Source: an uncultured Thermodesulfobacteriota bacterium (GTDB lineage: Bacteria; Desulfobacterota; RBG-13-43-22). Taken from it: 64,000 bases of DNA. The stretch spans positions 9,043 through 73,042 of the forward strand of contig CAZVHO010000006.1 in the NCBI GenBank assembly GCA_964627515.1, in the 5' to 3' direction. The notes beneath the pieces were generated by a model. It was not told the origin of the DNA, searched no databases, and worked only from the letters and a program-made list of their open reading frames with translations. The position numbers and the translations under genes are program-made. Below are positions 8,397 through 60,345 of this stretch, piece after piece (the stretch's first letter is position 1; each line of letters starts with the position of its first letter).

Positions 8397-8411
8397 TCAA
8401 ATATCATGCCG
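8397..8411 (-). promoter_or_regulatory. Candidate sigma-54-type promoter upstream of fliL with non-canonical -12 (CGGCAT-N5-TTGA)
   Basis: The minus strand reads CGGCATGATATTTGA with exact GG-N10 spacing but GA instead of GC at -12. It lies 57 nt upstream of ATG 8340. Confidence 0.3.
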
Positions 8412-8587: not shown

Positions 8588-8639
8588 CGTTGCTCGTTAC
8601 TGGTTGCTCGTTAAAACGAGCAACCAGTAACGAGCAACG
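8588..8639. repeat. Perfect 23-25 bp inverted repeat (hairpin) built from 7-nt periodic units
   Basis: CGTTGCTCGTTACTGGTTGCTCGTT-AA-AACGAGCAACCAGTAACGAGCAACG. Each arm reads as GTTGCTC/GTTACTG/GTTGCTC. It lies between the flgE stop and the fliL start. No flanking T-tract on either strand. Confidence 0.85.
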
Positions 8640-10391: not shown

Positions 10392-12167
10392 TCAAATGAT
10401 AATATGGATCAAATGGTTATTGTCGATAAGGGGACCTCCGGTGCCATCCAAGGCCCCCGGTGATTGAACCCGGTATTCGGTTTGGGTGGGTTGGTTCTGA
10501 TTTTGTTCTCTTCCCTGGTTTTTTAATGAAACGGAGAATTCCCCTATCTGCAATCCTTCTTTCCCCAATTCCGAGAGAAGCTGGGGAAGGTTGTTTTCGA
10601 TCAATTCTTTTCCGATCGAATCGTTGACCATGATCTGGGCATGGAGATGATGATCCGTCATTTTCAACTCGATGTTCAATTTTCCCAGACCTTCCGGCTC
10701 AAGAAAGACCTCCAGGGAAGAGGGACCATGTCTCTTTATCGTGAAGATCTGCTCTTGGGGAAGGACCATTTCCTGGGATCTCTGGAGGTGTGCCGCGGAT
10801 GGTAATTTATGAGCCGAGTTATTTTCCGGGTTAATCGAATTTCCAGGAGAACCACTGGTTTCAAAAAGTTGGGGTTGACCGGCCTCCACCTTTCCCATGG
10901 TCTCCTGGTTTTTGATCAAATCCTTTTTCTCCAGGCCTTCTTGAGCAGGGGCCATTTGCCTATCTTCATTGACCCTATACAGGGAGGAAATCTTGGTTCC
11001 GGCAGTATAATCTCCTTCCTCTTTTGCGTTATCTGTAGCGGGACTTAAATCAAAGGGATCGATTAAAAAGCGTTTTTTTTCTTCTGATTCCCCGGCCTTG
11101 ACGAAAACGCTATCCTTGAGAGAATCAACGGAAAACAACCTTTTCTGCCTCTCTTGGGACACAAGAGGGACGATATTTATATCGGCTTTGCTGCCTTCTT
11201 TATTAACAACGGGGGCGTTCGGAACAATCTCCTCCGTCGATCCCGGATCAATGGAGTCCGCCAAAGCAGAGTTTTTTCTCATCTCATCTCCGGCTTTGAT
11301 AATAATTCCATCACCGAAAGATTCAACGGGAAACAACCCTTTTTGTCTCTCTTGCGGCAGGAGAGGGACCCTATTTACCCCGGCATTGATGCCTTCTTTA
11401 TTAACAGCAGGGGCGTCCGGAACAATCCCATTCGTCGATCCCGGATCAATGGAGTCCGTTAAAACAGGGTTTTTTCTCCCCCCATCTCCCGCTTTGATAA
11501 AACTTCCATCCCGGAGAGATTCATCGAGAATCAACCCTTTTTGCTTCTCTTGCGGCATGAGAGGGACCACACTTACACCGGCCTTGATGCCTTCTTTATT
11601 AACAGCAGGCGCGTTCGGAATAATCCCATTCGTCGATCCCGGATCAATGGAGTCCGTTAAAACAGGGTTTTTTCTCCCCTCATCTCCGGCCTTGGTAAAA
11701 CTTCCATCCCGGAGAGATTCATCGGGAAACAAACCATTTTGCTTCTCCTGCGGCAGGAGAGGGTCCCAATTTAAACCGGCTTTGATGCCTTCCTTATTAA
11801 CAGCGGGGACGTTATCACCTCCAGCCTCTATTTTAAGTTCTTCTTGGGATTCTGACTTTCCCAACAAACCATCGACAGGATAAAAAAAGGGATCGAAAGC
11901 CTGGGTGACAGCGACCTGGCCCGAAGTCGGTAAAGGGAGGGCTTCCTTCGTTTCTTTTGATTCTTTTCCGGGTTCTTTTGAACCACCCGGTGCTCCTTGG
12001 CTTCCCTCCGAGCTCTGCCCCGTGCTATTGAGAAGCTTTGAAAGAACCGCCATTAAGAAATTTGAATTCTGGCCGTCCGTAGGGACGATTGGCGTTGAGT
12101 TGACCGAACCGGGGTTCCCTTTGTCTATCAGATAACTTCCCAAATCCATAACATTAACAGCCGCCAT
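10392..12167 (-). CDS. fliK: Hook-length control protein FliK with an internally repeated ruler region
   Basis: The C-terminal Flg_hook-like domain (LEVFLEPEGLGKLNIELKMTDHHLHAQIMVNDSIGKELIENNLPQLLSELGKEGLQIGEFSV) and the position before flgD support the call. The track start is TTG 12203. ATG 12167 (MAAVNVMDLG) is equally possible, so the start is uncertain. Confidence 0.75.
   Translation of the reverse strand: MAAVNVMDLGSYLIDKGNPGSVNSTPIVPTDGQNSNFLMAVLSKLLNSTGQSSEGSQGAPGGSKEPGKESKETKEALPLPTSGQVAVTQAFDPFFYPVDGLLGKSESQEELKIEAGGDNVPAVNKEGIKAGLNWDPLLPQEKQNGLFPDESLRDGSFTKAGDEGRKNPVLTDSIDPGSTNGIIPNAPAVNKEGIKAGVSVVPLMPQEKQKGLILDESLRDGSFIKAGDGGRKNPVLTDSIDPGSTNGIVPDAPAVNKEGINAGVNRVPLLPQERQKGLFPVESFGDGIIIKAGDEMRKNSALADSIDPGSTEEIVPNAPVVNKEGSKADINIVPLVSQERQKRLFSVDSLKDSVFVKAGESEEKKRFLIDPFDLSPATDNAKEEGDYTAGTKISSLYRVNEDRQMAPAQEGLEKKDLIKNQETMGKVEAGQPQLFETSGSPGNSINPENNSAHKLPSAAHLQRSQEMVLPQEQIFTIKRHGPSSLEVFLEPEGLGKLNIELKMTDHHLHAQIMVNDSIGKELIENNLPQLLSELGKEGLQIGEFSVSLKNQGREQNQNQPTQTEYRVQSPGALDGTGGPLIDNNHLIHIII
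11043..11813 (-). repeat. Four tandem 198-bp (66-aa) coding repeats inside fliK
   Basis: The unit N/D-xPAVNKEGIKAG..PL.PQEKQKGLF.DESLRDGSF.KAGD.GRKNPVLTDSIDPGSTNGI.P occurs at aa 131-196, 197-262 and 263-328. A diverged, shorter fourth copy follows. The periodicity is also visible in the antisense ORF 11098-11883. Confidence 0.9.
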
Positions 12168-12300
12168 AATCCCGATTCCTATTACTCTCTCTTTAAGAAG
12201 CAAGCCTTCTTTGTATTAAATCTTCAGGCACCAGTTGGCGCCACAACACATTAAAACATTGTATCAATTTAGCCTTTTGAAAAAACGTCAATTTCCTTTC

Positions 12301-12380
12301 CGTCATTCCCGTGAAAACGGGAATCCAGGTTCTTTTCGGCTCAGTATGACACCTGGATTCCCGTTTTCACGGGAATGACG
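12301..12380. repeat. Perfect 30-nt inverted pair of the GTCATTCCCGNGNNNNCGGGAATCCAGG palindromic repeat family
   Basis: CGTCATTCCCGTGAAAACGGGAATCCAGGT (12301-12330) pairs with its exact reverse complement at 12351-12380, separated by a 20-nt spacer. Each arm contains its own small hairpin. Confidence 0.9.
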
Positions 12381-12559
12381 GGGCAAGTGGGTCAGAATTT
12401 TCAAGTAAAAGCTTCTAATTTTTCAAGGGGCTAAAGTGTTACAAAATATTTTTTAGTGGCTACGGGCGATGGGCAATAGGTTAAAAGGTTTTCCGGATTT
12501 TTCTTTTCCTATAGCCTCGTGCCTAAAGCCTGAATTTTTCTATTTTCGAACTAAGAATA

Positions 12560-12574
12560 TCAATTCCCGTGCCA
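12560..12574 (-). promoter_or_regulatory. Candidate sigma-54-type promoter upstream of fliK with non-canonical -12 (TGGCAC-N5-TTGA)
   Basis: The minus strand reads TGGCACGGGAATTGA with exact spacing. It lies about 390 nt upstream of fliK. The intervening leader contains the inverted repeat insertion at 12301-12380. Confidence 0.3.
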
Positions 12575-15025: not shown

Positions 15026-15632
15026 TTCCTAAATGGTTCCTCAGTTCGTCGATAATATTAGAAAGTTGGAAATCGAGGTCTGTCTGGATTTCCTCGGAAG
15101 GACTGCAGACAATTGCTCCGCCTTCCGGGACATTATTATCGAGTTTAAAAATGAGGTCGGAAGATAATTCCAGGAATTCTGTTTTTTTCTCTATAAACAG
15201 CTCATAGAGAGAACGGTTTAATTTGATCGTAATCGGATCGGTTCGGCTTATTTTATTGATTGCCTCCTTGACCATTTTCTCAATGATCTCCGGTTGCAGG
15301 GAGAGTTCTTCTTTTAAAATTTTTCGGGCCATGGCTACGGCCAGTAAAACGACCTGGGGTTCCAGCTCAGACAACTGTTTTTCTTTTAACGTATTAATTT
15401 TTTTAAATAAATTTTCAAGGTCGGTAATTAATAGACTGGCTTTTTGTTTCCCCATTTCGTATCCGGCTTTTTCTCCGGAGGCATATCCTTTCTCAAAGGC
15501 TTGCCGTTCAATTTCTTCGGGATTGATCTTTACCGGATGGGCCTTTCCCGCCTTATCTTGGGAAAGGCCCTCCAAATAAGGCATGGAATAAGAGTCTACT
15601 GAACATTTCTTGATGACCTTGGTCCTAAACAA
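15018..15632 (-). CDS. fliH: Flagellar export ATPase regulator FliH
   Basis: 204 aa between fliG and fliI, overlapping both. It has a charged coiled-coil middle region. Confidence 0.75.
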   Translation of the reverse strand: MFRTKVIKKCSVDSYSMPYLEGLSQDKAGKAHPVKINPEEIERQAFEKGYASGEKAGYEMGKQKASLLITDLENLFKKINTLKEKQLSELEPQVVLLAVAMARKILKEELSLQPEIIEKMVKEAINKISRTDPITIKLNRSLYELFIEKKTEFLELSSDLIFKLDNNVPEGGAIVCSPSEEIQTDLDFQLSNIIDELRNHLGNA

Positions 15633-18159: not shown

Positions 18160-18266
18160 CTATTGTCGAACTAAGCTTTTATGCTCACTGGAGCGCCATG
18201 AAACATGAAAATATCTTCAAGGTACAGGGTTTTTATGCTTGAAACTTGCATCTTGCATCTTGAAAC
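18160..18266 (-). repeat. Composite intergenic element copy E1 (fliE-fliF spacer)
   Basis: The minus strand reads three parts in order. First, heptamers GTTTCAAGATGCAAGATGCAAGTTTCA (18266-18240). Second, the core ATTTTCATGTTTCATGGCGC (18212-18193). Third, the box TTAGTTCGACAATAG (18174-18160), 9 nt before the fliF GTG. Confidence 0.7.
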
Positions 18267-18276
18267 TTTATTTGAA

Positions 18277-19369: not shown

Positions 19370-19397
19370 TGTTGTTTTCCTTTAATTTGAAAAAAAA

Positions 19398-19498
19398 GTT
19401 TCAAGATGCAAGATGCAAGTTTCATGACGGACTTTTAATAAGTCCATCCAGTATGACAAAATATATAAATCATCCTCATTTTCATGTTTCGTGGTGCC
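19398..19498 (+). repeat. Composite intergenic element copy E6, inverted relative to E1
   Basis: The plus strand reads GTTTCAAGATGCAAGATGCAAGTTTCA (19398-19424). This is the exact reverse complement of 18240-18266. It is followed by the core ATTTTCATGTTTCGTGGTGCC (19478-19498). Confidence 0.7.
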
Positions 19499-19533
19499 GG
19501 ACCAGGCGGGCATGAGGCTTTAATATATTTATA

Positions 19534-19548
19534 TCAAAATTCATGCCA
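19534..19548 (-). promoter_or_regulatory. Candidate sigma-54-type promoter upstream of flgB with non-canonical -12 (TGGCAT-N5-TTGA)
   Basis: The minus strand reads TGGCATGAATTTTGA with exact spacing, 165 nt upstream of the flgB ATG. Confidence 0.3.
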
Positions 19549-20939: not shown

Positions 20940-22115
20940 TTATGAGAGCAAACCCTCACCAGGCGTATTGAATTTGGGAAAAATAAGTTGAAAACAGGTT
21001 CCTTCCCCTTCTTCACTTTGAACTTTGATGGTCCCGCCGTGGGCCTGCATAATATTGGCGGCTATGGACAGTCCCAATCCGGAGCCTTTCTCCTTCAAAC
21101 TGAAAAAGGGGTCAAAAATCCTTTCCATAAATTCAGAAGGGATTCCCGGGCCATGATCTTTTATTTCAAGGACCGTCTCTTCCTCATTTCCTTTTTTAAG
21201 AAAAAGTTCAACGGCCCCTTCTTCCGGGGCGACCTCGACGGCATTCAAGAGGATATTTAAAAGCACTTGTTTAATGAGTTCCCTGTCACCCCAAAGCCGC
21301 CGATGTCCATTTAATTGTTTCCCTAATCGAATCCTTTTGATTTCGACCAAAGGCCGGAGCATAAAAAACAACTCCTCCAGGGTCTTTTCAAAATCGATCC
21401 AGTCAAAGCAAGGTTTTTGAGGGATGGCAAAATAGTGCATATTGGTCAGGACATGATTCAGACTGGTAATCCCCTGGGATATGCCTTTGGCCAGTTCGGC
21501 ATGAACCGAATGCTCCAGATCACCGGCCAACATAGAGGCATAGAGTTCCATACTGCAAAGCGGATTTCGTATTTCATGAACCAGCTTGGCCGCCATTTCA
21601 CCCATAGCGATCAATCGCTTATTCCTTTCCTTCTGGATTTCCAGCTCTTTTAAAAGGGAAATATCCTTAATAAGGACCACATACCCCCTGACCAATCCAT
21701 CCGAATCCTTTATCGGAGAACGGGAAAAGATAACCTGACACCTTTTTTTATTGGTGACCAGAAAAGTGGTTGTCCCTTCCTCCAGAATGATGATATCCAG
21801 GTCATGAAAAGACCAGCCAATTATTCCAGGGGATTCCATACCCAGCATTTCTTCGGCCGCCCTATTGATCATGGTTACCCGTTCCTTGGGATCTAAGACA
21901 ATGATCGCTTCTCCCAGGCTTTGCAGGATGCCGTTCAAAAAATCTTTGGCTTCTTCGGCTCTATTTAAGGCCGTTGAAAGTTGCTGATTGGTTTCCTCCA
22001 AAACACCGGTCAAATAATGGACTTCTTCCTGAAGTTTTTGGTAATAGGCTTCCAGACTCTTGGAGGCCGCGGTAAAATCGGAAAAGGCCGTTTGAAGGTG
22101 GCAGGCTTCGATCAT
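20940..22115 (-). CDS. Soluble PAS-domain sensor histidine kinase (FlrB/FleS-like by context)
   Basis: 391 aa with no TM segment. Coiled coil plus PAS, the H-box VHEIRNPL, and HATPase motifs DHGPGIP and GSGLGLSIA. Confidence 0.85.
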   Translation of the reverse strand: MIEACHLQTAFSDFTAASKSLEAYYQKLQEEVHYLTGVLEETNQQLSTALNRAEEAKDFLNGILQSLGEAIIVLDPKERVTMINRAAEEMLGMESPGIIGWSFHDLDIIILEEGTTTFLVTNKKRCQVIFSRSPIKDSDGLVRGYVVLIKDISLLKELEIQKERNKRLIAMGEMAAKLVHEIRNPLCSMELYASMLAGDLEHSVHAELAKGISQGITSLNHVLTNMHYFAIPQKPCFDWIDFEKTLEELFFMLRPLVEIKRIRLGKQLNGHRRLWGDRELIKQVLLNILLNAVEVAPEEGAVELFLKKGNEEETVLEIKDHGPGIPSEFMERIFDPFFSLKEKGSGLGLSIAANIMQAHGGTIKVQSEEGEGTCFQLIFPKFNTPGEGLLS

Positions 22116-23917
22116 TAATAATGTTCTCCCATCTTTCTCTGCACTTCTTTTTCCCGAAGGCTGGCCCTGGCTAATTTACTCAAAATGGAATTACTGGCCT
22201 TAATCCTACCCAACATCCTTTCGGCTTCTTCACCGGGCGACAGGGTGCCGGCCCGGTATAAGGCCCATTCATTTAAGGGGTCCTTTTCCAGGGCCTTTTG
22301 GTAATAGGTCAGGGCCTCTTTCTTTTTCCCTTGACCGTACAGCAAATCCGCTAACTGGATATAAATATTGGCATTACCATCCAGTCTACGGAGGTTTTTT
22401 TCAAAAACGGCTAAGGCCTTAGTAACATCCTTGGCCGAGGAAAGGGTATCTTCAAACAAAGGCAGGTCTTGGGATTCCATCTTTTTTAAAGACAAAATGC
22501 GTTCAGAGGCCGCCCGGTATTCCATTCGGGCGTGAAGTATCCGGGCTTCCAAACGGAGGATTTGGTCTCCCGTAACTTTATGGTTCCTTAAAGCCTTGAG
22601 ACCCTCCAGGGCCAAATCCTGGTTTCCGGCCTCAACGTAATATTGAACCAGGGCGATCAGGCTTTGAATCTTGACCTTCTCTGCGCCGTTTTTCGCCAAC
22701 CACTGGAGAAGCTCAAGTTTTCCGGTCCCCTTCAACGATTCAGCCATGACCAGAAGAAAAGGTTCCCGGGAGGTCTGCAACAGCTTCTTGCCAATGGAAG
22801 CCCAAAGAGAGGCTATTTGGTTGGGGTCTTTATCCTTGATCTTTAAAAAAAATCCTTCTAATTCCGTTAAAGTCTCTTTATTGAGGGAAGATCGCAGGCC
22901 CAAAGCCTTGATCCACCCGCCGGCCTGTTCAAACCTTTCCCCCTGCATATCCAGCTTGGCCAGTTTGATTAATACCTCCTCACTTTTTTTACCGTTGGGA
23001 TACTTCCATCGATATTCTTGCAGGGTCTGTCGGGCTTCAAGGTTTTTCCCGGCTCCGGACTGGGCCTCGGCCAGATGGAAAAGGGCTTCTTGCCCAAGCT
23101 TTGGATCCGAAGAAGTCAAAGCGGATTTAAGATATTTTTGAGCTTCATCAAATTTCCGGGCTTCCAAGGCAACCCGGCCCAGGGCAACTTCGGATTTATT
23201 TTTAAAAACAGGGTCCTTCAATGATAAGACAAGATATTGAAGGGATTCCTGGTCTCTACCCATTTGATGAAGGTTTTCTCCATAATAAAAAAGGGCCTCT
23301 CCGGATTGCATTAAATATTTCTTACCCATCGAAACGCCTTCGGAATAGGCGGCATCGGCTTCCTTTAATCGCCCCAGCCGGTGGAGGATATTGGCCCTTC
23401 CGAAGATCGCATCCTGGCCTTTTCCCGCCTTCTCATAATTTTCCAGGGATTCCGGCAAAAGACCAAGGGCCGAGAGAGTCTGGGCTGCCCCCAGGTGGGC
23501 TTTTCCCAGATATTTGGATTGATTAAATTGGGTCAGAAAGATCTTGTAAACCGTTTTGGCTTCATAATAATTTTTAATCCGATGATAACCTTCGGCCCTT
23601 TCCAGCAGGGCCAGTTCCTTCAATTCTCCTTGAGGGGCCAAGAGATAAGCCATCCGATAATGCTCTATGGCTTCTAAAGGCTTTTGGACCTTTTCCAAGG
23701 CCCTTCCGTAACAAAAATGGTAATAACCCCGGGTTTCTGAAGCAGGGCGATAGGCGGCCAGGAATTGAATGGCCTCGGCCGGGCGATTGGCCTTAATCAA
23801 GGCCCAGGATTTTTGTAACCCCGGGTCGATAATCCCCTCCTCGAGAGACCGGGCCGGAAGAGAAGCCGGTATCGAAAAGATCAGGGTTATCAGGATGAAA
23901 ACAAGGTGCTTCCTCAT
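22115..23917 (-). CDS. Secreted TPR-repeat protein
   Basis: 600 aa with the signal peptide MRKHLVFILITLIFSIPASLPA and TPR-like A/Y/L-rich units throughout. Its stop overlaps the kinase start (ATGA-type junction at 22115). Confidence 0.8.
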   Translation of the reverse strand: MRKHLVFILITLIFSIPASLPARSLEEGIIDPGLQKSWALIKANRPAEAIQFLAAYRPASETRGYYHFCYGRALEKVQKPLEAIEHYRMAYLLAPQGELKELALLERAEGYHRIKNYYEAKTVYKIFLTQFNQSKYLGKAHLGAAQTLSALGLLPESLENYEKAGKGQDAIFGRANILHRLGRLKEADAAYSEGVSMGKKYLMQSGEALFYYGENLHQMGRDQESLQYLVLSLKDPVFKNKSEVALGRVALEARKFDEAQKYLKSALTSSDPKLGQEALFHLAEAQSGAGKNLEARQTLQEYRWKYPNGKKSEEVLIKLAKLDMQGERFEQAGGWIKALGLRSSLNKETLTELEGFFLKIKDKDPNQIASLWASIGKKLLQTSREPFLLVMAESLKGTGKLELLQWLAKNGAEKVKIQSLIALVQYYVEAGNQDLALEGLKALRNHKVTGDQILRLEARILHARMEYRAASERILSLKKMESQDLPLFEDTLSSAKDVTKALAVFEKNLRRLDGNANIYIQLADLLYGQGKKKEALTYYQKALEKDPLNEWALYRAGTLSPGEEAERMLGRIKASNSILSKLARASLREKEVQRKMGEHY

Positions 23918-23931
23918 GCTTTATCCAGAAA

Positions 23932-23946
23932 GCAACAACTATGCCA
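23932..23946 (-). promoter_or_regulatory. Canonical sigma-54 promoter motif (TGGCAT-N5-TTGC) abutting the TPR gene start
   Basis: The minus strand reads TGGCATAGTTGTTGC. The -12 C lies only 15 nt before the ATG at 23917, so the predicted transcript would have a leader of about 3 nt. Confidence 0.4.
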
Positions 23947-24140: not shown

Positions 24141-24318
24141 TCTGGATTCCCTCCTGCGCGGGAATGACGATTTTTTACGTGACCATCAATGATGACGGAT
24201 TCGTAAAAAGTCGCCGAAACCCGCATTGCGTCATTCTGGCGAAAGCCGGAATCCAGGTATTCAACCAATTCTGGACCCCGGCGCCTGTCCCGGACCTGAT
24301 CCGGGGTTCGCCGGGGTG
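24141..24318. repeat. Cluster of palindromic repeat units (GTCATTCCC..GGAATCCAGG family plus a CCGGGGT variant)
   Basis: TCTGGATTCCCTCCTGCGCGGGAATGACG (24141-24169, inverted) and GCGTCATTCTGGCGAAAGCCGGAATCCAGGT (24229-24259). These are followed by CTGGACCCCGGCGCCTGTCCCGGACCTGATCCGGGGTTCGCCGGGGTGACG. ORF 24098-24319 is the translation of these repeats. Confidence 0.8.
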
Positions 24319-24346: not shown

Positions 24347-25756
24347 TCAAAGATCGAGCTCTAATTTTTTAATCTTCTCCAATAAGGTGGTTCTCTTTAA
24401 ACCTAAGAGCTCGGCGGCCTTGCTTTTAACGCCCTGGGATTTTCGTAAGGCCTGACCGATCAAGTTCCTTTCTACCTCTTCCACCAAAGTATTCAGATTA
24501 ACCCCCTTCTCGGTGAGTATAACCTCACGGTGTGATTCATCCGGTCCCGTTTGGCTTTCGGAAACCTCTTTTCGGGGAACAGTCTGGAATTCTTGAAATC
24601 TTTGAGGGAGATCTTTTGCAGTAATCAGACTGTCATCGTTTAAGATGACCATCCTCTCGATCAGATTCTCCATTTCACGAACATTCCCGGGCCAGGGGTA
24701 TTTTAGAAAAAGCTCCGTCACCTCCTGATCGATCCGGATAGGTTCTCTTTTTCTTTTTCGTGAAAAATAATTAATGAAATAATCGGTCAAAACCGGGATA
24801 TCTTCCGGCCTTTCCCTCAAGGGAGGAATGCGGAGGGGAATTACGTTTAAGCGATAAAAGAGATCTTCGCGAAAATTACCGGCTTTGGTTTCCCTTTCCA
24901 GATTTTTATTGGTGGCTGCCAAAATCCGAACATCGACCTTAATGGTTTTGGATCCACCGACCCGTTCAAACTCTCTTTCCTGGAGCACCCGGAGGAGCTT
25001 GACCTGGAAGGAGGGATGGAGTTCCCCAATCTCATCCAGCAGGATGGTCCCTCCGTTGGCCCGTTCAAATCTTCCGATACGGGTATTGATGGCCCCGGTA
25101 AAGGCCCCCCGTTCATGTCCGAAGAGTTCCGATTCCAGAAGATCTTTGGGTATGGCCGCACAATTAAAGGGGACAAAGGGATTCTGGCCCCTGAGACTGT
25201 TATAGTGAATGGTCTTGGCGATCAGTTCCTTCCCGGTTCCGCTTTCTCCCTCAATTAATATAGTCGCATCAGTATCGGAAATTTTTTTTATCAGCCCATA
25301 AACCTTCTGCATTTGCGGTGAATTTCCAATCAGGCCCTGATAATCATACCGTTGCTTCAACTGTTTTTTCAGGGAAAAGTTCTCTTTTTTTAGTTTTGAA
25401 AAATCGAGGGCTCTTTGAACGACCAACCAAAGTTCTTCTAAGACAAAAGGCTTGGTAATATAATCGAAGGCCCCTAATTTTATGGCCTCCACCGCTGTGG
25501 CAATGGCCCCGAATCCGGTGATGATAATCGCGGGGATATTGATATTGAGGGAGGATATTTTTTTCAAGACCTCCATTCCCCCCATGCCCGGCAGGACCAA
25601 ATCCACCAAATAGAGATCTATTCCTTTTTCCTGAATCAACTCGATGCCTATCTCGCCATCTTCGGCTACCGAGACCTCAAAGCCTTTTAAATGTAAAAAT
25701 TCTTCCAAAATACTCCGGACCGCTGGATCATCATCAATCACTAAGATATGGGGCAT
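24347..25756 (-). CDS. Sigma-54-dependent response regulator (NtrC/AtoC family), orphan (no adjacent kinase)
   Basis: 469 aa with REC (LYLVDLVLPGMGG), GESGTGKE, GAFTGA and a C-terminal HTH (AAELLGLKRTTLLEKIKKL). Confidence 0.9.
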   Translation of the reverse strand: MPHILVIDDDPAVRSILEEFLHLKGFEVSVAEDGEIGIELIQEKGIDLYLVDLVLPGMGGMEVLKKISSLNINIPAIIITGFGAIATAVEAIKLGAFDYITKPFVLEELWLVVQRALDFSKLKKENFSLKKQLKQRYDYQGLIGNSPQMQKVYGLIKKISDTDATILIEGESGTGKELIAKTIHYNSLRGQNPFVPFNCAAIPKDLLESELFGHERGAFTGAINTRIGRFERANGGTILLDEIGELHPSFQVKLLRVLQEREFERVGGSKTIKVDVRILAATNKNLERETKAGNFREDLFYRLNVIPLRIPPLRERPEDIPVLTDYFINYFSRKRKREPIRIDQEVTELFLKYPWPGNVREMENLIERMVILNDDSLITAKDLPQRFQEFQTVPRKEVSESQTGPDESHREVILTEKGVNLNTLVEEVERNLIGQALRKSQGVKSKAAELLGLKRTTLLEKIKKLELDL

Positions 25757-25806
25757 GGTTTTCTTTTTTCCATTTCCAGATTATTTTGGTTTTGGGCCTG
25801 AAACTT

Positions 25807-25834
25807 ATTTTCGCACAACTATTTATTATGTCAA
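25807..25834 (-). promoter_or_regulatory. Candidate sigma-70 promoter with extended -10 for the orphan regulator gene
   Basis: The minus strand reads TTGACA-N16-(TGC)GAAAAT. It lies about 45 nt upstream of ATG 25756. Confidence 0.35.
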
Positions 25835-25886
25835 GAAAAAGGTGTATTAGAAACGACTTAATTGGAAAGGAGGCCGGAATGGGGTA

Positions 25887-32623: not shown

Positions 32624-32837
32624 ATGTGAACAACAGGTCTGAACCCTATAAAAGAATAAAAATCAAAAAAAACGGTCCAAATCACTTAAAACTCTTGAAA
32701 CGCCCAATCTTCCGAGGAGTGTCCTTTGATCCGACATTTTCAACTTTGGCGGCCGGTGTTTTTTTCCTCTGGACTTTGGACCCTGATTGGAAAGGTTTAT
32801 TCAGGGACAGGAAAAACATGATGATTATGTAAAAACC

Positions 32838-32867
32838 CGTCATTCCCGCGCAGGCGGGAATCCAGGC
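32838..32867. repeat. Single copy of the GTCATTCCCGCGCAGGCGGGAATCCAGG palindromic repeat, just downstream of cheB
   Basis: CGTCATTCCCGCGCAGGCGGGAATCCAGGC gives an 8-bp stem with a 4-nt loop. On the minus strand a TTTTT run follows 6 nt after the stem, so it may act as a terminator for cheAB. Confidence 0.8.
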
Positions 32868-36170: not shown

Positions 36171-36584
36171 ACGGTAATCCTTTCCTTGATTTTTCCAAAG
36201 GATTGTTGAAAAAAATTATCCTGAGAACAGGGAATCAGCATTTCTAATAGGTTTGGTTTGCTTTGTTGCAATAAATATACCGATAACTAATTGGCTTGAA
36301 ATTCTGCGGAATTGACCAAAAACGCAGTGTGACCGCACCAAATAACAAATTGATAAGTCAATATTTCGACGAAATCTGAGGACTCTTGACACTACCCCGG
36401 AGGATGCTGATAGATAACGAAGTAGGCGACAAAAAACAGCTTCCAGGGGTCGGGGATCAGGAGGCGGGGGGCTGAGGTCTGGAAAAGGAGCACCAGGAAC
36501 CACGAAAATATCGAATGTCGAAGTAAGGTTGGTTTTAAACCCGCCCCTACGGAGCCCCAACAGAGGCCAAGGGTGGTTAATAAT

Positions 36585-36677
36585 CTATTTTCGAACTAAA
36601 CCCCCATACCCTTTTGGGCATCACGAAACATGAAGATGGTTTTACTCCGAACTCCGAACTTTAAACTCCGAACTCTG
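36585..36677 (-). repeat. Composite intergenic element copy E2 (motB-cheA spacer)
   Basis: The minus strand reads heptamers GTTCGGA/GTTTAAA/GTTCGGA/GTTCGGA (36677-36644). The core ATCTTCATGTTTCGTGATGCC follows (36637-36617). The box TTAGTTCGAAAATAG is at 36599-36585. Confidence 0.7.
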
Positions 36678-36684
36678 TTTTCTT

Positions 36685-38257: not shown

Positions 38258-38317
38258 TTTATTCCTCCTGAACGGTTAAGGTTGCTTGAAACAATACCGG
38301 GTCAGACTTTTGATAAA

Positions 38318-38332
38318 GCAATCCTTATGCCA
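38318..38332 (-). promoter_or_regulatory. Canonical sigma-54 promoter upstream of motA
   Basis: The minus strand reads TGGCATAAGGATTGC (TGGCAT-N5-TTGC) with exact spacing, 61-75 nt upstream of the motA ATG. Confidence 0.55.
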
Positions 38333-38804: not shown

Positions 38805-38833
38805 CGGCCTGTAAAACTCTAATGCCTCCTGGA

Positions 38834-39080
38834 GGCACCATGAATCATGAAAATAGACCAGTCAAGGGCTTATTTAGGCACGGGTCAGGCACAAAGCCTG
38901 ACACACGGATTAACCATTTAGTTTCTCAAGAAAAGGGGTTTCCCTTTTCTTGAGACAAGCTTCCGCCGAAGGGCGGATGTTGGTCATCCCTCAATCCAGA
39001 CTTACCGGGATTGAGGGATACCCCATTGCTTTAACCGTGTAATCCGTGAAATCCGTGCCAAAAATTTATTTTCGCACTAA
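38834..39080 (-). repeat. Composite element copy E3 with four inserted perfect hairpins
   Basis: On the minus strand the spacer reads, in order: box TTAGTGCGAAAATAA (39080-39066, overlapping the upstream stop); heptamers CACGGAT-type (39059-39035); a 12-bp stem (38986-38997/39008-39019); a 5-bp stem (38964-38976); a 14-bp stem (38924-38937/38942-38955); a 7-bp stem (38884-38901); and the core CTATTTTCATGATTCATGGTGCC (38856-38834). Confidence 0.6.
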
Positions 39081-40405
39081 ACCCTGATGCTCACAATCGT
39101 CTCATCCGTCTCGATTCGGTTGATGGGGTCCTCCATCTCTTCCGATTCCCTGAGGAAAGTATAGTTTTTCAGGTTCAATCCGGCCCGATTAAAATTTTCC
39201 TTTAACTCTCCAAGACAGGAATGAATTATGGTATTCAGTCCGGGGTGCCTTACCTTAAAGGTCAGGGAAAAATCCCTGTCCTGCATAAAGATGAAGGCCG
39301 AAACCGGTCCCAGTTTTTCCAGTTCAAGATGAATGCCACAGGAATAAGAGGTCCCTCCTGACAGGGCCGTTCTCCTTTTAAAAATTAATTCTCCCCTTTT
39401 TAATTCGGCCCATTGAACCGGCAAAAAGGTATAAAAAGAGTCAGATATTTTTGAAAGGAGTTGGAAGGTCTCAATATCTTTTAAGAGGGTTTCTACCCCT
39501 CCTAAGGTCTTCTCATAGGGATGGACTGTTCCCTGTCGGCCTCTTTCCGCCTCCCCCACGGTTTTTTGTTCAAGAATTTCTTGAAGTTGTAATAAAAACC
39601 CTTTAATATCTTTATTTATTTTATTTTCAATTTGAAAAACATCTTTTTCCCCAAGGGCGCCGGATTTGGCCATGGCCTTCAATTTGGCTTCCAAAACAAT
39701 CCCGGAATTTTCTAAGGTATTTTTGAGTTGTCCGAAAGCCAGACCATCCATAGAGACCAGTAATTTTTCCTGAAGGTTTTGTAATAAAGGGGGGCTGCTT
39801 ATTTCTTCCTGAACCTGGTGGAATAATTGGGTTAACTTTTCCGCCACATCCAGACCCGGCCCTTTCAAAGAGGTCTGCAGAACTTGTTGAATTTCATCCC
39901 GCAGGCTTTTCGGAAGCACCTTGATATCCGAAGGCAGGGTCTTGAAAAGAGATCCTAAAAGGTCCCTTTGCTTCCCGGCGGGAACGGATTCGGGAGGTTG
40001 ACCCCCCTCAGCCCTGGCGTTGAACAAGTTGATGATTCTATCCGCTGCCTTCCTGGTTAGATCTTCTATTCTTTCATTCTCAACACCCGGAAATGATCTG
40101 GACCGTATTTCTTCTCCCGCCCCGGTTTTATTATCCAGTAATTGAAGTCTTAACTCGCCGGCTGCCCCTTTCCAGTCTAAGACCTTTAAAGAAAGGGTAT
40201 CATTTTTTTCAAAGGCCAAATTCGTACGGGCAGGTAAATAGCCGCCTTTAACCTTAAGGGTAAGACCTCCGGACGGGAAAAGATCGACCACCAGGGCCTC
40301 GATGATCTCACCTATTCGAAGAGGGATCTCTCTTCCAACAGGTTTTATGAGGGTAAGTATTGGTCCGGCCGATGGAGTTTCCTGAATACGAATCATTCCA
40401 ACCAT
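39077..40405 (-). CDS. FliK-like protein (second hook-length-control paralog; C-terminal Flg_hook-like domain)
   Basis: 442 aa. The C-terminal IHLELEKLGPVSAFIFMQDRDFSLTFKVRHPGLNTIIHSCLGELKENFNRAGLNLKNYTF follows the same pattern as the FliK C-domain at 10392-12167. It is paired with the FlhB-CTD-like gene. Assignment is by pattern, not by search. Confidence 0.5.
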   Translation of the reverse strand: MVGMIRIQETPSAGPILTLIKPVGREIPLRIGEIIEALVVDLFPSGGLTLKVKGGYLPARTNLAFEKNDTLSLKVLDWKGAAGELRLQLLDNKTGAGEEIRSRSFPGVENERIEDLTRKAADRIINLFNARAEGGQPPESVPAGKQRDLLGSLFKTLPSDIKVLPKSLRDEIQQVLQTSLKGPGLDVAEKLTQLFHQVQEEISSPPLLQNLQEKLLVSMDGLAFGQLKNTLENSGIVLEAKLKAMAKSGALGEKDVFQIENKINKDIKGFLLQLQEILEQKTVGEAERGRQGTVHPYEKTLGGVETLLKDIETFQLLSKISDSFYTFLPVQWAELKRGELIFKRRTALSGGTSYSCGIHLELEKLGPVSAFIFMQDRDFSLTFKVRHPGLNTIIHSCLGELKENFNRAGLNLKNYTFLRESEEMEDPINRIETDETIVSIRV

Positions 40406-42933: not shown

Positions 42934-43230
42934 AAAAAATCGTAACATTTTAACACTTTGAAAAAAATCTAATTGGTCTAAAAAACGATTTGGTAAATCC
43001 CCCCTGTCCCCTCTTTTTCTAAGGGGGGAACTTATTCCACTGGACTCCTCACTTTGTAAAAGGGAGGTGGGGAGGGATTTTTAAAAGATTTGAAAAAGAA
43101 TGTTGAGTGGGTGTAGTGAAACGGAACCCACCAGCGGGTAGCTCGGGCCAACCTGAATACAAAATAAATTTTCCTTCCTTCGAGTAATCTGTTAAGATGC
43201 CTGCAAATTTGATTTTGGAGGGATCGCTGA

Positions 43231-53584: not shown

Positions 53585-53690
53585 CATATTTTCCTGACTA
53601 AGCCTTCATCCCCGTCAGAAACGGGCACCGACGAAGGATAAAAATGGGTTTTTCTATGACCTTGAACCTTGCGCCTTGGACCTTGGACCG
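53585..53690 (-). repeat. Degenerate composite element copy E7 (livH-livM spacer)
   Basis: The minus strand reads heptamers CGGTCCA/AGGTCCA/AGGCGCA/AGGTTCA/AGGTC (53690-53658), then a GGTGCC hairpin (CCCGT-TTCTG-ACGGG), then the box-like TTAGTCAGGAAAATATG (53601-53585). Confidence 0.45.
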
Positions 53691-53693
53691 TAT

Positions 53694-60253: not shown

Positions 60254-60345
60254 TTCGCCACGAATCAGGAAGATCTTATTATAATTCGAATTAATTTGAC
60301 ATCAATAACTATCTTTTGAAGAGGGAAGGGAATCCGGAGGATTAG

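Follow-up and report, generated by a model that had tools for sequence, protein, structure and literature searches.

A modular hairpin repeat in the motility gene cluster of an uncultured Thermodesulfobacteriota bacterium: a genome-scattered family with fast turnover and not a motility-gene switch

The stretch of DNA considered here (the window) comprises 64,000 nucleotides of contig CAZVHO010000006.1 (assembly GCA_964627515.1) from an uncultured Thermodesulfobacteriota bacterium, and the feature in question is an intergenic element in the spacer between motB and cheA (positions 36,585 to 36,677), of which further copies occur in the same window. Since the hairpin repeat is scattered through the genomes of this bacterium and of several other anaerobes and turns over quickly, it constitutes a repeat family and not a motility-gene switch. 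The copy between motB and cheA most likely belongs to a genome-wide set of non-coding, non-autonomous repeats, mobile or recombining, of the kind of the REPs (repetitive extragenic palindromic sequences) and BIMEs (bacterial interspersed mosaic elements), rather than to a set of control sites for motility. We file the elements under the general kind of interspersed mosaic hairpin repeats; several rules for REPs and all those for MITEs (miniature inverted-repeat transposable elements) fail, and we know of no parent transposon. Most of the window is occupied by a flagellar and chemotaxis cluster on the minus strand (flhA...fliK, fliF, flgBC-fliE, sigma-54 activators, cheA, motAB), with liv-type transporter genes and then redox genes at its right-hand end, and MotB homologues place the source organism among uncultured Thermodesulfobacteriota (“Deltaproteobacteria bacterium” metagenome-assembled genomes, MAGs).

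Read from 5' to 3', an element consists of the left end TWCGAAAATAR, a variable module, the conserved segment ATTTTCATGWTTCGTGGYGCC, a short covarying hairpin and the right end GGCATGRGGGYTTAR. The conserved segment is 21 nt long and terminates in GTGG at the hairpin foot; together with the hairpin and the right end it aligns as one unit of 55-65 nt in 45 distinct copies, that is, (CT)ATTTTCATGWTTCGTGGYGCC, the hairpin and then GGCATGRGGGYTTARTWCGAAAATAR (the right-end stretch next to core and hairpin is also written GGCATGAGGGTTTAG), while the element with its variable module measures ~90 to 335 nt. The edges were set by aligning the copies of one MAG with their flanks and by profiling all the ends. 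On the right, 29 of 56 units enter unrelated DNA immediately after GGCATGRGGGYTTAR and the other 27 go on with TWCGAAAATA; on the left, in the 46 ends that have no preceding unit, positions -5 to -1 read T (30), T (39), T (41), A (36) and R (38), and conservation does not extend beyond -5. Elements lie, then, directly 3' of TTTAR and themselves end in TTTAR, and copies therefore stack head to tail, in arrays of two or three elements, and one core is interrupted by another repeat or module. The TAR of the target doubles as the stop codon of an open reading frame (ORF) of at least 80 codons at 8 of 31 array starts, and six more have an ORF end at most 39 nt upstream; in the window the same placement is seen at fliE, motB and the fliK-like gene, and likewise at a liv permease gene, there with a TGA stop (GTTGA replacing TTTAR). 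The right-end hairpin lies ~13 nt from the element end, and base pairing between the left end and the beginning of the core encloses the variable module. The true ends, TWCGAAAATAR and ...YTTAR, are not inverted repeats of each other, and no matching target duplication is carried by the elements: the presence of A or G in the left pentamer shows no correlation with that in the right one (8 same, 11 different, read by eye), which argues against a fresh duplication of the target.

The original prediction had recognised a recurrent, structured and modular intergenic element, and the counts bear this out. The box TTAGTTCGAMAATAG is exact at 12540, 18160 and 36585 on the minus strand and is found with 2 mismatches at 39066, against a chance expectation of 0.19; the core TTCATGWTTCRTGRYGC is exact at 18193, 36618 and 38835 (minus) and at 19481 (plus), and with up to three mismatches it matches ten times in the window against 1.4 expected. 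The two best copies are also equally long, at 55 nt. The division into heptamers, core and box as three separate parts had to be given up, core and box being parts of one element: conservation stops sharply after TTAR and restarts at TWCGAAAATAR, so that the box is the junction TTAG|TTCGAAAATAG, in which the TTAG of one element (or of a native target) is followed by TTCGAAAATAG, the start of the next. At 18160, for instance, it is formed by the TTAG of element A (Table 1) and a lone left-end remnant. As regards the boxes said to occur alone, that at 12540 is the left end of element F, that at 25805 belongs, as the -10 region, to a sigma-70-type promoter kept in two element-free relatives, and the degenerate one at 8403 is detected neither by the profile hidden Markov model (HMM) nor by the covariance model. 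Tandem heptamers were confirmed with a period of 7 at four copies (Tandem Repeats Finder: 18245-62, 19402-19, 36644-75 and 53658-89), but the array at 39059-39035, also described as heptameric, has a period of 9; similarly, the minus-strand reading attributed to all copies is valid except for that at 19398-19498, which is on the plus strand, antisense to its flanking genes. Altogether the window holds five clear copies and a degenerate one, one of them inverted relative to the surrounding genes, and among the five clear copies GTGG is found only in that at 19476-19498, the others having ATGG, GTGA or GTCGG.

Table 1. Positions and composition of the elements, element fragments and sigma-54-type promoter matches in the window.
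Feature	Position	Strand	Setting	Parts	Detection
Element B1 (the noted feature)	36596..36684	-	motB-cheA spacer; directly after motB stop (TTTAA, 36689-36685)	degenerate left end AAGAAAACAGAG; GTTCGGA-type heptamers 36675-36644; core ATCTTCATGTTTCGTGATGCC; hairpin TGCCC-aaaa-GGGTA; right end TGGGGGTTTAG	nhmmer 36639-36585, E 8e-14; covariance model 58.5 bits
Element B2, decayed	36487..36595	-		left end TTCGAAAATAG 36595-36585 (3' part of the box); REP-like module including GTAGGGGCGGGTTTAAAACC 36550-36531; junction-like TTACTTCGACATTCG 36526-36512; degenerate core ATATTTTCGTGGTTCCTGGTGCTCC 36511-36487	
Element A (106 nt)	18171..18276	-	fliE-fliF; directly after fliE stop (ATT TAA, 18281-18277)	degenerate left end TTCAAATAAAG; CAAGATG heptamers; core 18213-18193; hairpin GCTC-cagt-GAGC; right end CATAAAAGCTTAG	
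Lone left-end remnant	18160..18170	-	after element A; then ribosome-binding site GGGGA and fliF GTG start (18150)	TTCGACAATAG	
Element C	19386..19523	+	flgB leader, antisense to genes; after TTTAA 19381-19385	left end TTTGAAAAAAAG; CAAGATG heptamers 19398-19424; spacer; core 19476-19498; hairpin; right end CATGAGGCTTTAA	found as an inverted repeat, by nhmmer profile and by covariance model
Element D	38819..39076	-	fliK-like/flhB-like spacer; target TTTAG 39081-39077 holds stop TAG 39079-39077	left end TGCGAAAATAA 39076-39066; period-9 CACGGAT repeat 39057-39035; three hairpins; core 38856-38834; hairpin GCCTCC/GGAGGC; shortened right end CATTAG	
Element E	53598..53693	-	between two liv-type permease genes (BPD_transp_2 on both sides); after stop TGA (GTTGA, 53698-53694)	truncated left end; AAGGTCC heptamers 53689-53658; degenerate core CATTTTTATCCTTCGTCGGTGCC; hairpin CCCGT-ttctg-ACGGG; right end GATGAAGGCTTAG	nhmmer E 9e-7; covariance model 32.6 bits
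Left-end-like sequence	53597-53587	-	directly after element E	TCAGGAAAATA	
Element F	12216..12550	-	fliK leader; directly after sigma-54-like promoter TGGCACGGGAATTGAT (12574-12559) and ATTCTTAG	left end TTCGAAAATAG 12550-12540; long variable part; AGGCTTT-type heptamer hairpin; GTCATTCCCG...CGGGAATCCAGG palindrome 12381-12300; degenerate core and hairpin 12257-12225; right end GATTTAA	covariance model 16 bits, weak
Core fragment	60256..60274	-	between radical-SAM and molybdopterin oxidoreductase genes (both +), antisense to both	ATCTTCCTGATTCGTGGCG	covariance model 15 bits, E 0.8
Sigma-54-type match	12559-12574	-	upstream of fliK operon		
Sigma-54-type match	19533-19548	-	upstream of flgB operon		
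Sigma-54-type match	38317-38332	-	upstream of motA operon		
Sigma-54-type match	23931-23946	-	upstream of 600-aa TPR-protein gene 22115-23917		
Sigma-54-type match	39323-39338	-	inside fliK-like ORF		

The short hairpin 3' of the core had been predicted to change in sequence with its pairing kept, and this is observed in the window copies and across the 45 units. Overall 82% of cells pair, versus 43-52% when the partner columns are slid; the inner helix covaries, and the proposed check for compensatory changes is illustrated by one pair that reads CG in 21, GC in 12, AU in 3 and UA in 2 units; the outer pairing of ATTTTC with GAAAAT is nearly invariant, with two changes from A-U to G-C. The median stem has 5 pairs (range 2-8) and most loops comprise 3-4 nt. 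GTGG was found in 35 of the 45 units (plus two with GGTGG), and in 38 of 42 it is separated by 0-1 nt from the base that opens the stem. Of 62 units, 53 show better folding of the forward strand than of its reverse complement, with 38 versus 18 G-U pairs. RNAalifold on a MAFFT alignment gave only four hairpin pairs, and the structure was then set by hand.

The variable module consists of tandem heptamers, GTAG-type palindromes, G/C-rich palindromes or almost nothing, and its contents are recurrent families, common to several species and partly to several phyla: AGTTCGGAGTTAAGAGTTCGGAGTTCGGAG; imperfect hairpins of GGTTCAAGG/GGATTC; arrays of GAATTCA/GGAGTCA; and palindromes of the types CCCTTCCCTCCCC...GGGGAGGGTGAGGG, GTAGGGGCGGG and CTGGATTCCGGC...GGAATGAC. 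This recurrence also bears on two array systems that were considered and rejected because their “spacers” recur at other loci, namely a CRISPR array (here they recur across loci and species and range from 3 nt to >250 nt) and an integron array of the attC kind (with no AAC/GTT ends). A separate palindrome family, GTCATTCC(C/G)G...CGGGAATCCAGG, is found at 12300-12381, 24142-24258 and 32819-32867 of the window, fills elements elsewhere (loci L012, L040, L051 and L083) and occurs in locus L200 at 15520-15600.

When one genome per species was scanned with a 19-nt pattern of the core, at least 104 stretches were returned, the per-genome copy numbers being lower bounds; among the matches listed, about half are single chance hits and the remainder come from ~23 genomes with the whole unit, and a profile HMM gave at least 113 units. 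The scan of other genomes that had been proposed thus found further copies, the unit being multicopy in at least six Thermodesulfobacteriota-like MAGs, with 5-14 separate loci each among the matches listed (again as lower bounds). Element-rich genomes include CAVYLJ01, CAWIRY01, JACQYK01, JAFGSM01, JAZDOU01 and CAZSTT01, and lineage-specific right halves are found in three Dehalococcoidia genomes (two of them closed chromosomes, OZ244722 and OZ240223), two Firmicutes, one Latescibacterota MAG and others. Neighbouring genes are unrelated to one another (AMP-dependent ligases, TPR proteins, sulfatases, two-component systems, dehydrogenases, ABC transporters, radical-SAM enzymes, kinases), and relative to the flanking ORFs, crudely called, 26 units are co-directional in sense, 16 are antisense, 16 lie in divergent and 15 in convergent spacers. 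Viral contigs gave only chance matches to the 19-mer and plasmids none, and the core sequence was not found in a full-text search of the literature. Rfam 15 yielded no hit at gathering score in the window and none at E<=1 on any unit in seven unit-rich loci, in keeping with the earlier statement that the element fits no known class; nonetheless, the exclusion of REPs and BIMEs that went with it was too strong, given the GTGG at the hairpin foot of the consensus. A c-di-GMP-I-GGC riboswitch match (70.7 bits versus a gathering score of 59) was seen in a locus of an element-rich MAG (L021, 5348-5440).

Evidence for turnover comes from the close relative GCA_016219225.1 (loci L200 and L201), which shares 94-97% DNA identity with the window and covers most of the cluster. 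Over ~45 kb there are seven breaks of colinearity, six of them at element sites and the seventh being a 33-codon deletion inside the sigma-54 activator gene. Between fliE and fliF, L200 reads ATTTAG|TTCGATAATAG-GGGGATAAAGGTG, and in the window 106 further nt are intercalated precisely at the boundary of the pentamer and TTCGACAATAG, that is, between a native ATTTAR and TTCGAYAATAG; in more distant relatives fliE ends in a native ATTTAA or GTTTAA followed by unrelated spacers. In the flgB leader of L200 both ends of the inverted element are kept and ~93 nt of heptamers and core are absent. Between motB and cheA, a CAAG-type heptamer hairpin in L201 and L202 replaces the GTTCGGA array, the full unit and a GTAG-type palindrome, whereas the degenerate core of element B2 and everything downstream of it are ~97% identical; a second relative (95% MotB identity) has the same CAAG array, and its contig terminates inside the repeat. 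The fliK2-flhB2 spacer of L201 has the same left end with other heptamers (CAGGGAT/CGGGGGT), its own core and a different hairpin, and the fliK leader of L200 has the same promoter and left end followed by CAAAGCT-type heptamers and its own core; both of these elements also differ in length between the two genomes. In two other species, whose flanks are 94% identical, the length of the same array differs by exactly one 7-nt unit, and the sequences diverge fully past the hairpin apex; in a further orthologous pair, a full array on one side corresponds to a single heptamer module on the other. It is mainly at these elements that close relatives differ by an insertion, a deletion or a replaced module.

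Two details of the comparison with the same relative were recorded in passing. The spacer between bipA and the next gene holds, at ~43000-43076, a G/C-rich palindromic module (CCCCCTGTCCCCTC ... GGGAGGTGGGGAGGG), and ~220 nt of the window at this place are matched by only 47 nt in L201, this being another hotspot of insertion and deletion with a different repeat family. As to the sigma-54 activator gene (24347-25756 in the window, 2692-4002 in L200), the product of L200 is devoid of 33 residues that include the Walker B region (GGTILLDEIGEL) and lie between two FER motifs, which reflects either a genuine, inactivating loss or an error of assembly.

The link with leaders of flagellar and chemotaxis operons, as drawn in the original prediction, has not survived these comparisons. 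A cis-regulatory element of that regulon, be it a promoter, an operator, a leader or an attenuator, would be suggested by the location of most window copies in spacers of flagellar and che operons, by the left end of element F (12550-12540) lying directly after a sigma-54-like promoter and by the resemblance of the GAAAAT in the left end to the -10 of the conserved sigma-70-type promoter at 25805. Yet not one unit occurs in 80 FliF loci of relatives from metagenomes (443 kb, up to 79% identity), in the loci L001-L003 or in relatives with ~68% MotB identity despite the kept gene order; the fliE-fliF, flgB-leader and motB-cheA copies are missing from, or replaced in, the close relative, whose motility genes are intact; elsewhere most copies, in both orientations, adjoin non-motility genes; and in the window itself one copy lies in the liv operon, one fragment beside redox enzyme genes, and one copy is inverted relative to its genes. 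No -35 or -24/-12 partner was seen by eye at a fixed distance, either. A role of this sort is thus very improbable. Promoter readings of core and box for sigma-28, sigma-54 or sigma-70 were discarded for want of a consistent partner element (25805, the one box-like site with a proper -35, is an ordinary conserved promoter and no copy), and so were the flagellar promoter types GG-N10-GC and TAAA-N15-GCCGATAA, the units containing no such sigma-54 pair and, by eye, no consistent TAAA. A site for IHF in the core amounts, by eye, to a weak match to WATCAANNNNTTR only, and the GGA of CsrA-type sites is present in only some heptamer types.

Short leader peptides opened by the ATG of the core (MFHGAPVSIKA and the like), which would couple or attenuate downstream translation, had been noted as mini-frames, and in two window copies the frame does stop at the TAG of the junction. 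Across the 45 units, though, frame and stop differ and no frame is kept, because differences in hairpin length are not multiples of three; the hairpin codons change as paired bases and not at synonymous sites, a ribosome-binding site is missing and copies occur antisense to genes, all of which makes this reading scarcely credible.

The window does contain recognisable promoters apart from the elements. The sigma-54 activator gene 24347-25756 is preceded, at 25805-25845 (minus strand), by a sigma-70-type promoter, TTGACA-N16-(TGC)GAAAAT, which is kept base for base in L001 and L002, relatives without elements, and probably drives the top regulator of the flagellar hierarchy. In addition, five matches to the sigma-54 type (TGGCAY-N5-TTGMW; Table 1) were found versus 0.15 expected, two of them with TTGAT instead of TTGCW at -12.

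A more serious alternative is that the unit is a structured RNA module selected in the transcript (a processing or stability element, a protein-binding RNA or a self-cleaving or catalytic motif) that is multicopy as many operons use it. The strong conservation on both sides of a covarying helix of free sequence would fit it well, as would the better folding of the forward strand, the maintenance of the 21-nt segment across phyla, the co-orientation of five of the six window copies with their operons and the predicted stability of a duplex between two of them (see below). Nevertheless, the strand asymmetry stems largely from the shared conserved sequence and therefore counts as about one observation, and a single-stranded DNA substrate of transposition accounts for the same asymmetry and covariation. 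Moreover, other repeats are inserted into the conserved segment, no Rfam family matches, the sense bias is not significant (26 versus 16), with divergent and convergent spacers equally occupied, and copies are absent or replaced at the orthologous sites of near-identical relatives with nothing compensating. It is the lack of a sense bias, together with the loss without replacement in a near-identical relative, that renders a functional RNA the less likely explanation, and we regard it as unlikely.

How do these elements compare with described repeats? For REPs, the search rules used previously ask for a tetranucleotide GT[AG]G 0-2 nt 5' of the hairpin foot and a basal stem of 7-20 fully paired nt with a loop of 2-5 nt (PMC6006769), the total size being 20-40 bp (PMC3733652). 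As in REPs, BIMEs and REPINs (the repeats associated with RAYT transposases), we are dealing with short, multicopy extragenic hairpins, often situated just past gene ends, with GTGG at the hairpin foot as that criterion demands, and with mosaic clusters that include other motifs, GTAG-type palindromes (GTAGGGGCGGG...) being part of the arrays. In contrast, our units are arranged head to tail, whereas REPs occur predominantly as head-to-head or tail-to-tail dimers and only rarely head to tail (PMC3733652); their stems are shorter (median 5) and fall outside the rule for REP stem and size; ~20 nt are conserved on each side of a hairpin of free sequence, while in REPs the hairpin itself is conserved; the 21-nt segment crosses phyla, unlike REPs, which are described as species-specific (PMC3733652, PMC6006769); and no RAYT (TnpA-REP) gene was found next to any copy.

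Insertion sequences of the IS200/IS605 family and their transposase-less derivatives (palindrome-associated transposable elements) offer a second comparison. IS608 inserts 3' of TTAC, and hairpins near the ends of IS200/IS605 elements are accompanied by a guide tetranucleotide (PMC6006769). Likewise, the present elements follow a short sequence, TTTAR, without target duplication or long terminal inverted repeats, and appear to have hairpins near their ends with a foot tetranucleotide and strand-specific folding. They differ in that each terminates in the very pentamer that it targets, a property that would explain the stacking, in that the left end carries an exchangeable module and not a fixed hairpin, and in that the only IS200-like gene seen has ends unrelated to theirs. 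To our knowledge, neither IS608 nor ISDra2 has been described as ending in the sequence of its own target.

Terminal inverted repeats and a matching duplication, the marks of MITEs, are not found in the studied element. The possibility of a classical MITE mobilised by a DDE transposase, such as a miniature of the Tn3 family, arises from the complementarity of the outer 8 bp (CTATTTTC/GAAAATAG) and from the hairpin arms, which, read outward (GGGGCA...ACGAAAATAG; GGGGCACC...ATGAAAATAG), presumably resemble the terminal repeats of Tn3, gamma-delta and Tn21 (GGGG ... ACGAAAA), a likeness to which we attach little weight. These supposed tips are, however, the least conserved part of the unit; the leftmost copy of an array has no tip half and begins at TWCGAAAATAR, conservation stops at TTAR and not at the tip of an inverted repeat, the pentamers on the two sides do not agree in the way that a recent 5-bp duplication would, and no transposase was found near any copy. 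Above all because of the variable tips and the missing 5-bp duplication, a Tn3-type origin appears quite improbable.

Intergenic repeats of modular build, in which the number of internal modules varies, are also known as BOX (boxA-boxB(n)-boxC) in Streptococcus pneumoniae and as MIRUs in mycobacteria; they lie within operons, near stop and start codons or overlapping them, and we know of no dedicated transposase for either. They have no sequence relation to our element, whose variable module changes in kind and not just in copy number, and in-frame mini-ORFs of the MIRU type are not conserved in it. Closer in composition are the multicopy intergenic repeats of Geobacter metallireducens, namely GGGACCG at 49 places, MTYCTGA at 16 and the octamer GTTGCTYN at 48, whose heptamer arrays were described on their own and proposed to be binding sites of regulators (PMC2700814). 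Both there and here, four to five tandem 7-nt units of several types are intergenic and sometimes accompanied by a copy on the opposite strand, the difference being that here the heptamers are one of several kinds of exchangeable filling within a longer element whose ends are conserved. In heterocystous cyanobacteria, the tandem heptanucleotide arrays called STRR have likewise been described on their own. The window additionally contains a perfect 25-bp palindrome (8588-8639) built of the 7-nt units CGTTGCT CGTTACT GGTTGCT CGTT and their complement, downstream of flgE and with no core nearby, which resembles the GTTGCTYN family.

Taken together, GTGG at the foot, strand-specific folding and target-specific insertion free of duplication point to single-strand transposition by an enzyme of the HUH (Y1) type, and a transposase of this type probably moves the elements. 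In such a scheme, a transposase of the IS200/IS605 or RAYT type, acting in trans, would propagate them as single-stranded DNA; it would recognise the hairpin with its GTGG foot and cut after TTAR; as the end of each element would recreate the target, tandem arrays could accumulate. Modules might be swapped by recombination or gene conversion between conserved segments, and heptamer arrays might expand and contract by slippage, although the 7-nt arrays might also be produced by the machinery of transposition or replication itself and not by ordinary slippage. Rather speculatively, and with doubt that covers both options jointly, there could be an undescribed miniature family that spans phyla, lands at TTTAR (often stop codons), recreates its own target, carries cassettes and depends on an unrecognised HUH enzyme, or else the 21-nt segment with its hairpin could be a new RNA motif of Thermodesulfobacteriota, Chloroflexota and Firmicutes.

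Several observations weigh against the interpretation as mobile repeats of the REP/BIME kind. No protein family recurs within 1.5 kb of the units by ORF clustering, no ORF is multicopy among the loci searched, and tblastn with approximate RAYT-like and IS608-like queries over ~0.7 Mb of loci found no RAYT and one IS200-like gene. An orientation bias with respect to local GC skew, as expected for elements of the IS608 type, was not detected by what is a weak test. The median stem of 5 pairs is below the minimum of 7 in the REP search rule (PMC6006769), the head-to-tail arrays and the cross-phylum segment are unlike REPs, and conserved single strands around a helix of free sequence are typical of functional RNA as well. 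The copy numbers per genome, moreover, are lower bounds. Finally, the “empty” fliE-fliF site of the close relative still holds a lone left-end remnant (present without the rest of an element), and the difference between the two genomes may reflect a loss by deletion and not a gain by insertion.

The IS200-type TnpA just mentioned (L084, 7318-7776; 152 aa, HUH motif HVHIL) carries end hairpins of its own, CCCCCGGCTTTGCCGGGGG and CCTCCGGCTCTGCCGGAGG, and adjoins a CTCAGCC/ATCAGCT heptamer hairpin, in a sequence unrelated to the studied element. Regarding the surroundings of the noted copy, the motB-cheA spacer measures ~515 nt, the first ~200 nt after motB being repeat modules and the remainder ~97% identical to the close relative. 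A 114-aa ORF with a TTG start and no Pfam hit (36216-36560, minus strand) is probably not a gene, since it starts within decayed repeat modules. In another part of the cluster, 3.5 tandem copies of a 198-bp (66-codon) repeat, 85% matching, lie inside a 603-aa fliK-like gene (11118-11813), and L200 shows repeated matches in the same region.

Copies that lie inside operons are transcribed on that account, and their hairpins probably affect the processing or stability of the mRNA. A 34-nt inverted repeat, 97% matching (18240-18273 / 19391-19424), and the inverted cores of elements A and C (18213-18193 / 19476-19498) bracket flgB-flgC-fliE. In the flgB...fliF transcript, the flgB leader is predicted to be able to pair with the fliE-fliF spacer in a duplex of -84 kcal/mol, versus -36 +/- 5 for shuffled sequences, and the modelled pair could be a substrate for RNase III or for DNA inversion; both of its arms are absent from the relative with 94-97% identity.

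For annotation, the implication is that the motif should not be read as a control element of flagella or chemotaxis, which removes a false lead. As copies lie inside operons, some of them may have been recruited to mRNA processing, for which the inverted pair that brackets flgB-flgC-fliE is the best candidate. The repeat family is the main source of structural change between close genomes of this uncultured lineage and it breaks metagenome assemblies, while its sharply defined ends and TTTAR target make the spreading and stacking of small hairpin repeats amenable to testing. The tandem-heptamer repeats of Geobacter, so far unexplained, are also linked by this family to a larger element.

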